Part shown: in pieces, positions 61,546 to 62,349 of the stretch | Position numbering within the stretch: the stretch's first letter is position 1 | Layout: every line of letters begins with the position of its first letter | NCBI GenBank assembly: GCA_963848295.1 | Contig: CAWKDB010000010.1 | Coordinates: 1,440,001 to 1,504,000 of the forward strand | Origin: an uncultured delta proteobacterium | GTDB lineage: Bacteria; Myxococcota_A; Polyangia; Haliangiales; Haliangiaceae | Reading direction: 5' to 3' | DNA length: 64,000 bases | Notes under the pieces: generated by a model | Told to the model about the DNA's origin: nothing | The model's database searches: none | What the model saw: the letters and a program-made list of their open reading frames with translations, nothing else | Position numbers and translations under genes: made by a program

Positions 61546-61732
61546 CCGATTCGCCGGGGCCGTCTCGCCCGTCGCGCCGCACTCGCGCCGGCGCCGTGAC
61601 GAGCGCGGGCACAAATCTCCGCACGCGTCGATCGATCCAACTCTGCGGCGGTCCTTCGCACGCGTCGGTGGTCCCGGCGCTCGGCACGGCGCTGGCGCGA
61701 AGCGGCGCAGGGCGACGGCCACGGCGAATCGG
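61546..61732 (-). ncRNA. Candidate structured RNA leader (long hairpin), copy 1
   Basis: CCGATTCGCCGTGGCCG-TCGCCC pairs with GGGCGA-GA-CGGCCCCGGCGAATCGG; inner helices GCGCCGC/GCGGCGC, GCGCCGTG/CACGGCGC, CGAGCGC/GCGCTCG. Confidence 0.7.
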
Positions 61733-61750
61733 AGGCCGCGAGGAGCGAAG

Positions 61751-62123
61751 CGGCGGCGGCATCGGCGACGGCGACGGCGACGGCTACGGCGACGGCTACG
61801 GCGACGGCGACGGCTACGGCATCGGCACCGGCTACGGCTACGGCATCGGCACCGGCTACGGCTACGGCTACGGCACCGGCTACGGCTACGGCTACGGCAC
61901 CGGCGACGGCTACGGCTACGGCTACGGCTACGGCTACGGCGATTGCGGCGGCGGCGGCATCGGCTGCGGCCGCGGCATCGGCTGCGGCATCGGCTGCGGC
62001 ATCGGCTGCGGCATCGGCTGCGGCTGCGGCTGCGGCATCGGCTGCGGCGGCGGCTGCGGCGGCGGCGGCGGCGGCGGCGGCGGCGGCGGCCGCGGCCGCG
62101 GCCGCGGTTGCGGTTGCGGCGGC
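61751..62123 (+). repeat. Hexamer array 2, (CGGCNN)n
   Basis: Left half CGGCGA/TA/AT/AC; register break at GATTG near 61941; right half CGGCTG/AT/GG/CG. Confidence 0.95.
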
Positions 62124-62151
62124 CTAGAACACTCGACGCTCCTTCGCTCGC

Positions 62152-62349
62152 GCCGATGGGCGGAACGTCTCTCTCGCCCTGCGCCGCTTCGCGCTTGTCC
62201 CCCGCCGAGCGCCGAGTGCGCCGGCGTGTGAGAGCGACCGCCGCGGAGTTGGATCGACCGGCGCGTGCGGGAGGTGGTGCCCGCGCTCGTCACGGGACCC
62301 GCGCGAGTGCGGCGCGACGGGCGAGAGAGAGACGTTCCTACCCATCGGC
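62152..62349 (+). ncRNA. Candidate structured RNA leader (long hairpin), copy 2
   Basis: GCCGATGGG.GGAACGTCTCTC-TCGCCC pairs with GGGCGA-GA-GAGAGACGTTCC..CCCATCGGC; same core as copy 1. Confidence 0.7.

Follow-up and report, generated by a model that had tools for sequence, protein, structure and literature searches.

A double cassette with two hairpins between host genes

The window analysed here is a 64,000-nt stretch of the genome of an uncultured delta proteobacterium (GCA_963848295.1, contig CAWKDB010000010.1, positions 1,440,001 to 1,504,000), and window coordinates are used throughout. Near its right end, between two protein-coding host genes, lie two divergent small genes, A and B, each preceded on its 5′ side by a large hairpin and separated and flanked by arrays of a six-base repeat:

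60905..61148, + strand: left six-base array, (CGG CNN)n, beginning 4 nt past the stop of the flanking host gene
61158..61175, − strand: small hairpin 3′ of gene A; a similar 3′ segment follows six A copies, including the window copy
61196..61516, − strand: gene A, 106-aa four-helix-bundle protein (PF05635, TIGR02436)
61524..61530, − strand: Shine-Dalgarno-like CGAAAGG of gene A
61546..61732: hairpin A; + is the strand on which its mismatches read as G·T/G·A, and the gene-strand reading is −
61597-61606 and 61677-61685: invariant core of hairpin A, with the loop motif at 61641-61651
61751..62120, + strand: central six-base array, about 110-410 nt long and differing in unit mix among ten copies
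62140..62146, + strand: TCCTTCG, complementary (with one G·U) to the Shine-Dalgarno-like CGGAGGA of gene B at 62359-62365
62153..62348: hairpin B; − is the strand on which its mismatches read as G·T/G·A, and the gene-strand reading is +
62204-62212 and 62283-62292: invariant core of hairpin B, with the loop motif at 62238-62248
62371..62694, + strand: gene B, encoding a four-helix-bundle protein of 107 aa that shares about 69% identity with A across 97-99 aligned residues
62695..62875, + strand: 3′ tail of the B unit, found after B genes only, in seven places including the window, and cut by the array at varying lengths
62878..63328, + strand: right six-base array, of the same strand polarity as the other two, ending near the stop of the convergent host gene

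Each hairpin is thus 5′ of its own 106-107-aa PF05635/TIGR02436 gene. Proteins A and B score 52.4 and 46.1 bits against PF05635 (cut-off 33.8), and the best PDB match of these four-helix proteins is 2GSC (XCC0516). No sigma-70 promoter or terminator pattern was found in 60800-63400, and no rRNA match in 60500-64000, where the flanking genes are protein genes. A CCTTTCG complementary to the Shine-Dalgarno-like sequence of gene A occurs 5′ of the hairpin in most other A copies and is missing from the window A copy.

The hairpin is a conserved fold whose stem covaries

The original prediction, made from the letters of the two window copies, held that they share three identical blocks and an apical GACCGCCGCRGAGTTGGATCGA, that their outer stems are unrelated in sequence yet both pair and close on CCGAT/ATCGG, and that a middle helix swaps GCGCC/GGCGC for GTCCC/GGGAC. 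Alignment of copies A and B confirms every one of these points, and the outer arms prefer their own partners, with duplex energies of −88 and −76 kcal/mol compared with −49 and −60 kcal/mol for swapped partners. The 2-nt GA bulge proposed for both copies is fixed in copy 1 (A) but can shift along a (GA)n run in copy 2 (B); among 83 distinct homologues, the corresponding site carries a GA or AG bulge in 36 and a bulge of any kind in 76. Both window hairpins fold better than all 200 shuffles, on the gene strand as RNA (z of −6.5 and −5.3) and on the opposite strand as DNA (z of −8.6 and −6.9).

To extend the comparison, we used a covariance model of 25 sequences with a hand-set 20-pair stem; one genome (G010) contributes one of the 25 sequences and one row in the counts, and no claim depends on it alone. 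Across 88 distinct matches (effective number 68), 9 of the 20 stem pairs change on both sides. The covariation score was reached by 0 of 500 shuffles, a control that ignores relatedness and uses an alignment fitted to the structure, and three stem pairs have MI-APC values of 0.87-0.98 against a standard deviation of 0.04. Pairing is seen in 94% of cells in the 88 hairpins compared with 15-64% in slid controls, here too with related sequences and an alignment fitted to the structure; a plain sequence alignment recovered 14 pairs only. Outer arms find their best partner within their own hairpin in 25 of 30 cases (mean −75 vs −53 kcal/mol). All hairpin counts given here draw on related sequences, partly from the same genomes, and are therefore non-independent. 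The double-sided changes and strong MI-APC support the proposed selection on RNA or ssDNA structure, the covariation persists in the larger alignment of 88 homologues, and a search of Rfam returned no family, only three weak matches, all in arrays and far below the gathering threshold.

The conserved parts of the hairpin are a GCGC helix and a core of 7 bp whose closing mismatch is almost invariant. The loop is about 70 nt long, with 121 of 129 hairpins falling between 69 and 73 nt (allowed range 64-76), and has a conserved CCGCCGCANAG motif at its centre. No covarying pair was detected within the loop, and single loop folds disagree. The loop evolves faster than the arms: in one relative, loops are 66% and arms 90% identical across six copies, and the corresponding values in this genome are about 89% and 97%. 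We also considered the loop as a guide or bridge RNA and rejected this, as its variable segments show no excess match to target or donor flanks: in 129 hairpins with 200-240 nt of flank, the longest matches to own and other flanks were equal (e.g., 6.5 vs 6.6 and 7.2 vs 7.1 nt). Taken together, the hairpin is a real, conserved and selected fold of about 190 bases.

Mismatch chemistry favours the strand opposite the gene

Read on the gene strand of 83 distinct hairpins, isolated mismatches outside the core are AC in 53 cases, CT in 83, CC in 21 and TT in 11 (168 in sum), compared with 36 of the opposite class (GT 22, AG 8, GG 5, AA 1). The core mismatches of the same hairpins are AC in 49, CT in 68 and GT in 0. 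Because C·A and C·T mismatches on the gene strand are G·T and G·A on the other, these counts point to folding of the strand opposite the gene, where one core pair reads U·G in 55 and U-A in 32 sequences. Among first-set sequences, folding is energetically more favourable on the opposite strand in 25 of 30 as RNA and 28 of 30 as DNA. Outside the training set the preference is weaker: the opposite strand folds better in only 17 of 26 model matches, though the model favours that strand, and the mismatch skew outside the core falls to AC 12 vs GT 5 (22 sequences).

The mini-hairpin motifs GC-GNA-GC and GC-GNRA-GC occur 35 and 54 times on the opposite strand and 11 and 9 times on the gene strand, a 3- and 6-fold difference; GNRA-type motifs outnumber GNA-type, which would also fit RNA. 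The strand skew itself leaves RNA and DNA undivided. According to the portion of PMC5027507 consulted, the recombined (active) strand of attC sites likewise has a G:T and purine skew. GC skew is weak as a replication-strand signal. We conclude that the hairpin likely folds on the strand opposite its four-helix gene.

Hairpin copies are dispersed, old and mosaic

BLAST and the covariance model together recover 23 full hairpins in this genome (85% complete), every one at a PF05635 four-helix gene, and BLAST alone scored one extra truncated copy. Ten of the back-to-back pairs combine A with B, an eleventh is diverged and one copy stands alone; most sit between protein genes. The window hairpins represent subtypes A and B, and the genome holds 10 near-identical copies of each. 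The array of the solo copy is followed by a different GC-rich hairpin, repeated in tandem with a unit of about 200 nt (L070, G000:C10:1111600-1111900).

Within subtypes, hairpins diverge by 5-6% and four-helix genes by about 7%. Purifying selection acts on the genes, with pN/pS values of 0.15 and 0.19 when one truncated A copy is omitted. By the four-gamete test the copies are mosaic, with 189 of 325 and 227 of 465 informative site pairs incompatible (58% and 49%), to which assembly polishing could contribute a part. Mantel tests of A-B co-evolution gave r from −0.13 to 0.27, none significant and all of low power.

In the closest relative found, decayed copies with short arrays occupy two orthologous sites, and at the site of the window locus the host genes abut, with a truncated neighbour and a deletion junction; two further sites are interrupted by contig ends. 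The decayed copies and the deletion junction indicate that the insertions are old, and the comparison revealed neither a clean empty site nor a duplicated target. The orthologous A copy of the relative is no nearer to its same-site counterpart than to other copies, which fits homogenisation among copies. At one site (L124-L125, G145:C187:4400-6700), about 2.3 kb of other genes stand in place of the B unit, with the remnant of an array on one side and a decayed A unit on the other; cassette sites may take up foreign DNA.

The covariance model matches 15 of 60 family genomes, among them 12 of 18 other genomes of the genus and 2 of 16 of one sister genus, with no match in the 14 other genera of the family set. 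Well-scoring named records are largely from Kofleriaceae or unclassified Proteobacteria/Deltaproteobacteria. A pattern scan across genomes gave at least 112 loci, of which about 40 are clear by the model and the remainder were treated as chance. Carriage by phage was considered and dismissed, the one pattern match in viral contigs (29 bits) not being accepted.

Three unrelated cargo families share the hairpin at a probable cassette end

Among the 42 pattern and model matches listed, some of which repeat loci found before by other searches, the cargo side holds a four-helix gene in 22, a DUF222-HNH gene in 7, a GxxExxY gene in 2 and no recognised gene in 7, and is too short to judge in 4. The same hairpin is exchanged among three unrelated cargo families, on one fixed side. 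To our knowledge, the PF05635 four-helix-bundle, GxxExxY and DUF222-HNH families are small families without an agreed role. In 19 of the 24 outside matches with room, a four-helix gene begins at a distance of 33-107 nt from the model end. DUF222-HNH genes, whose Pfam scores are mostly below cut-off, lie on the same strand in 5 and on the opposite strand in 2 of the matches listed.

Hairpins are mostly found as inverted pairs. By model strand, the relatives hold 8 inward-facing pairs (in 4 genomes), 3 outward-facing and 2 tandem. Two of the 8 inward-facing pairs bracket an HNH gene (L306, L307) and, where mapped, others bracket two convergent four-helix genes (L308, L309, L320). The right hairpin of a third HNH element (L316) is damaged and was recognised by eye only, and in the genome of this element likeness among copies starts at the hairpin foot, placing the hairpin at the terminus of the repeated unit. 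Several HNH genes have a hairpin at one end only, which in another genome is the 3′ end only. Between the convergent four-helix genes we noted tandem palindromic units of about 40 nt with a GGTTCCGCGGAACC-type core (L308:1400-1770, L309:1420-1800, L320:1670-1890), and tyrosine-recombinase genes are inserted inside one HNH cassette with its two bracketing hairpins (L307:1577-4313).

These arrangements make doubtful the reading of the hairpin as a leader, as originally proposed: mismatch chemistry favours the opposite strand and the hairpin occurs on both sides of DUF222-HNH genes. It is likely the end mark of a small mobile cassette rather than the RNA leader of a gene.

Six-base arrays follow the four-helix gene

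Arrays of (CGG CNN)n, on one strand, lie at the centre of each back-to-back pair and usually at its outer sides too, and they differ completely between copies in this genome. Sixteen of the 22 arrays of at least 150 nt lie within 700 nt of these four-helix genes (about 0.5% of the genome). Among the matches listed, outer-side six-base arrays accompany 17 of 22 four-helix cases vs 1 of 20 others, against a background of 0.75%. Array units differ widely between loci and the loop motif stays, and in other four-helix subfamilies of this genome six-base repeats occur where the hairpin is missing. It is the four-helix gene, not the hairpin, that the arrays accompany, so two features can be separated: arrays belong with the protein, the hairpin with the cassette end.

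Similar six-base arrays also occur inside protein genes far from the cassettes, as Gly-Ser or Pro-Ala linkers (G000: C10:3810855, C11:383254, C2:877802). A second multi-copy four-helix cassette lacks the hairpin and has terminal inverted repeats and inverted (GACCTT)n/(AAGGTC)n runs; its copies (L001, L004-L006, L009) are at G000:C2:271083-271394, C2:797188-797472, C10:2647165-2647461, C10:3467581-3467865 and C10:3175866-3176054. Apparent group II intron ends abut the termini of this second cassette at two sites and interrupt a third. A further four-helix gene (L007, G000:C8:9516-9824) is enclosed by inverted (CGAGCC)n/(GGCTCG)n runs and, further out, by an imperfect inverted repeat, with its ORF looped out in an IVS-like manner.

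No mobilising enzyme is tied to the hairpin in these searches

Reverse transcriptase (RT), tyrosine-recombinase and RAYT queries, three of each, were run against 90 hairpin loci, and only RAYT matched, in 2 loci. The RT queries were the three of this genome, all of group II intron type, and had no match in these loci, whose flanks span about 0.1-1.5 kb. The nine RAYT matches of this genome all lack this hairpin, and among 50 RAYT loci of the genus the hairpin occurs at one, the seed locus itself. In that only such case found, the hairpin lies about 250 nt upstream of the RAYT gene on the folded strand (L200:1-1040). A RAYT as dedicated partner was rejected given the 49 other RAYT loci that lack it. 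No integron integrase exceeded the cut-off in this 85%-complete genome (best 73.8 bits vs 265), in which we also found no GxxExxY gene, and its two DUF222-HNH genes are without a hairpin match. The searches thus tied no mobilising enzyme to the hairpin.

Across the genus, RAYT genes occur in multiple copies, with up to 20 matches per genome. Several of those in this genome (L072-L079, L008) have their own upstream imperfect hairpin of about 190 nt with CTGTGG/CCACAG-like ends, unrelated to the model. Upstream of two RAYT genes (L289, L290), a leader 3′ arm (CGCGCTGGTCACGGCG) resembles the core arm of the hairpin and was not scored by the model.

A proposed folded end of transposase-less cassettes and its alternatives

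The best explanation, to which we give about an even chance, is that the hairpin forms the end of mobile cassettes that lack a transposase, folding as a single strand and following a REPIN-like logic. The fold on the opposite strand would be ssDNA rather than RNA and would be read in trans by an enzyme supplied by another part of the genome. Where a pair faces inward, each cassette strand would carry the fold at its 3′ end, and an HUH (RAYT-type) or DUF222-HNH nuclease might recognise the core and cut or prime there; the cassette would then be copied, either to extragenic positions or onto copies already present. The same two ends, permuted, could give the back-to-back form of this genome. The four-helix protein would be linked to the six-base arrays, as cargo rather than as a partner specific to the hairpin. 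Of these elements, the repetition, covariation, strand skew, exchange of cargo and placement at the ends are observed, and the folded species, the enzyme and the copying route are what we infer. A bolder version, which we consider unlikely, posits a new class of transposase-less elements in myxobacteria with structured 3′ fold-back ends and a 70-nt ruler loop, in which DUF222-HNH would be the nicking enzyme of the autonomous form, the ends would be lent to GxxExxY and four-helix cargo, and a four-helix oligomer would drive array growth and copy-onto-copy homing, yielding mosaic copies.

A role as RNA is rather unlikely in our estimate, either as a 5′ leader hiding the four-helix ribosome-binding site or as an opposite-strand antisense ncRNA bound by a four-helix oligomer in the manner of Avd in diversity-generating retroelements (DGRs). 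On the mRNA strand the stem foot is predicted to cover the Shine-Dalgarno sequence in 33 of 57 four-helix cases, with anti-SD/SD pairs CCTTTCG/CGAAAGG in A and TCCTTCG/CGGAGGA in B, and the short spacing to the four-helix start and the GNRA-type motifs of the opposite strand would suit this role. Avd itself, in the portion of PMC6182149 consulted, is a pentameric, positively charged barrel that works with an RT and RNA. Still, 24 of the 57 are not locked, few single anti-SD matches exceed shuffles, the mismatch skew speaks against the mRNA strand, and neither the hairpins on both sides of HNH genes nor the missing sigma-70 promoter and terminator pattern fits a transcribed leader. Sites of the sso/ssi and Frpo types are priming or promoter sites that exist only in ssDNA. 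That the fold is such a site, driving second-strand synthesis or gene expression in a single-stranded cassette, would agree with the folded strand serving as template for the four-helix gene, with the fold immediately ahead of the Shine-Dalgarno sequence, and with the conserved stem core and loop motif, but −35/−10-like boxes are absent, the GC content is 67-81% and HNH cargo occurs in both orientations, and we hold this to be improbable.

Pairing could also persist in the absence of selection if template switching corrects a quasi-palindrome and gene conversion acts among the copies, the hairpin then being a passive repeat. The heavily mosaic copies and the lack of a dedicated enzyme at 90 hairpin loci and 50 RAYT loci speak for this, but it is made quite improbable by a core mismatch that is retained, not corrected, in almost all sequences, by invariant core pairs, by the clustering of loop lengths and by the one-sided mismatch skew. 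The original prediction likened the hairpin to retron a1/a2-closed ncRNAs, and such an RT-linked RNA might even template the six-base arrays, given that the loop motif CCGCCGCAG resembles the array unit of this genome, that a long closing stem stands before a gene and that the four-helix family is one we take to be akin to the DGR accessory Avd. This likeness fails, as none of the 90 hairpin loci matches the three RT queries, array units vary and the loop motif is constant, and the arrays follow the gene rather than the hairpin; we regard the reading as very improbable. The other likeness originally drawn, to RNase III-cleaved intervening sequences (IVSs) of rRNA, fares no better. A free-living relative of these, its stem cut by RNase III to process a transcript, would share the protein family of IVS ORFs, and in Coxiella, IVS excision is by RNase III (PMC4990558, consulted in part). 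The region has no rRNA match, however, the sites are mostly between protein genes, and cutting would not excise the ORF because the ORF lies outside the stem, all of which leaves this reading a far-fetched one.

To return to the folded cassette end, one hairpin common to three families, with a defined core, preferred strand and ends, is a concrete substrate for binding, cutting and mobility assays. If it is true that a structure-reading enzyme moves arbitrary cargo between such ends, they could be a possible insertion tool.

Comparison with known systems

REPs and REPINs, as described in the portions of PMC3116915, PMC3479197 and PMC3733652 consulted, share with the hairpin the form of multi-copy extragenic imperfect palindromes, in inverted doublets and two-subtype heterodimers; the 11 back-to-back pairs of this genome are such doublets. 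Like them, the hairpin lacks a transposase of its own, and RAYT genes are present in the genome. The hairpin differs in being about 190 nt long, compared with 20-40 nt for a REP in those sources, in carrying whole genes within its cassette and in numbering about 23 copies rather than very many. It has no fixed GTAG/CGTC foot tag, GTAG occurring in 7 and 18 and CGTC in 35 and 34 of 149 hairpins (40-45-nt zones, either strand), and a cognate RAYT flanked by the repeat is found in 0 of 9 cases here and 1 of 50 in the genus.

From the portion of PMC5027507 consulted, attC sites resemble the hairpin in keeping structure under sequence change, in their small bulges or extrahelical bases, and in a skew towards G:T and purine mismatches on one strand, the one that serves as template for the neighbouring ORF. 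They differ in that the RYYYAAC/GTTRRRY core occurs in 0 of 149 hairpins, the integron integrase is not over cut-off in this genome, the loop length is nearly fixed and the hairpins form inverted pairs, not tandem arrays. In 23S rRNA IVSs, a PF05635/TIGR02436 protein likewise accompanies a long stem (PMC4990558, in the part consulted), but the hairpin is outside rRNA, its ORF begins 3′ of the stem foot instead of being looped out, and it is multi-copy between protein genes and serves other cargo too. Retrons and DGRs also place a structured segment before a gene, and DGRs use the protein Avd together with an RT (PMC6182149, in the part consulted). The four-helix protein is an Avd-like small helical protein. 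Here, in contrast, no RT is nearby, no template/variable repeat pair was seen and the fold is on the non-coding strand.

Streptomyces telomeres and parvovirus ITRs are 3′-folded termini of linear replicons. Inward-facing pairs would similarly place the purine-mismatch-rich fold at the 3′ end of each strand, but the hairpin is chromosome-internal, no terminal protein or Rep gene was seen, and it has one long stem with a large loop. Among the papers listed by searches of a largely open-access library, none gives an account of the hairpin element. Their defining tests speak against membership of REP, attC, retron and IVS; the hairpin works most like a REPIN, with the strand logic of attC, and on the best reading the element would be a new form of palindrome-ended non-autonomous mobile DNA.
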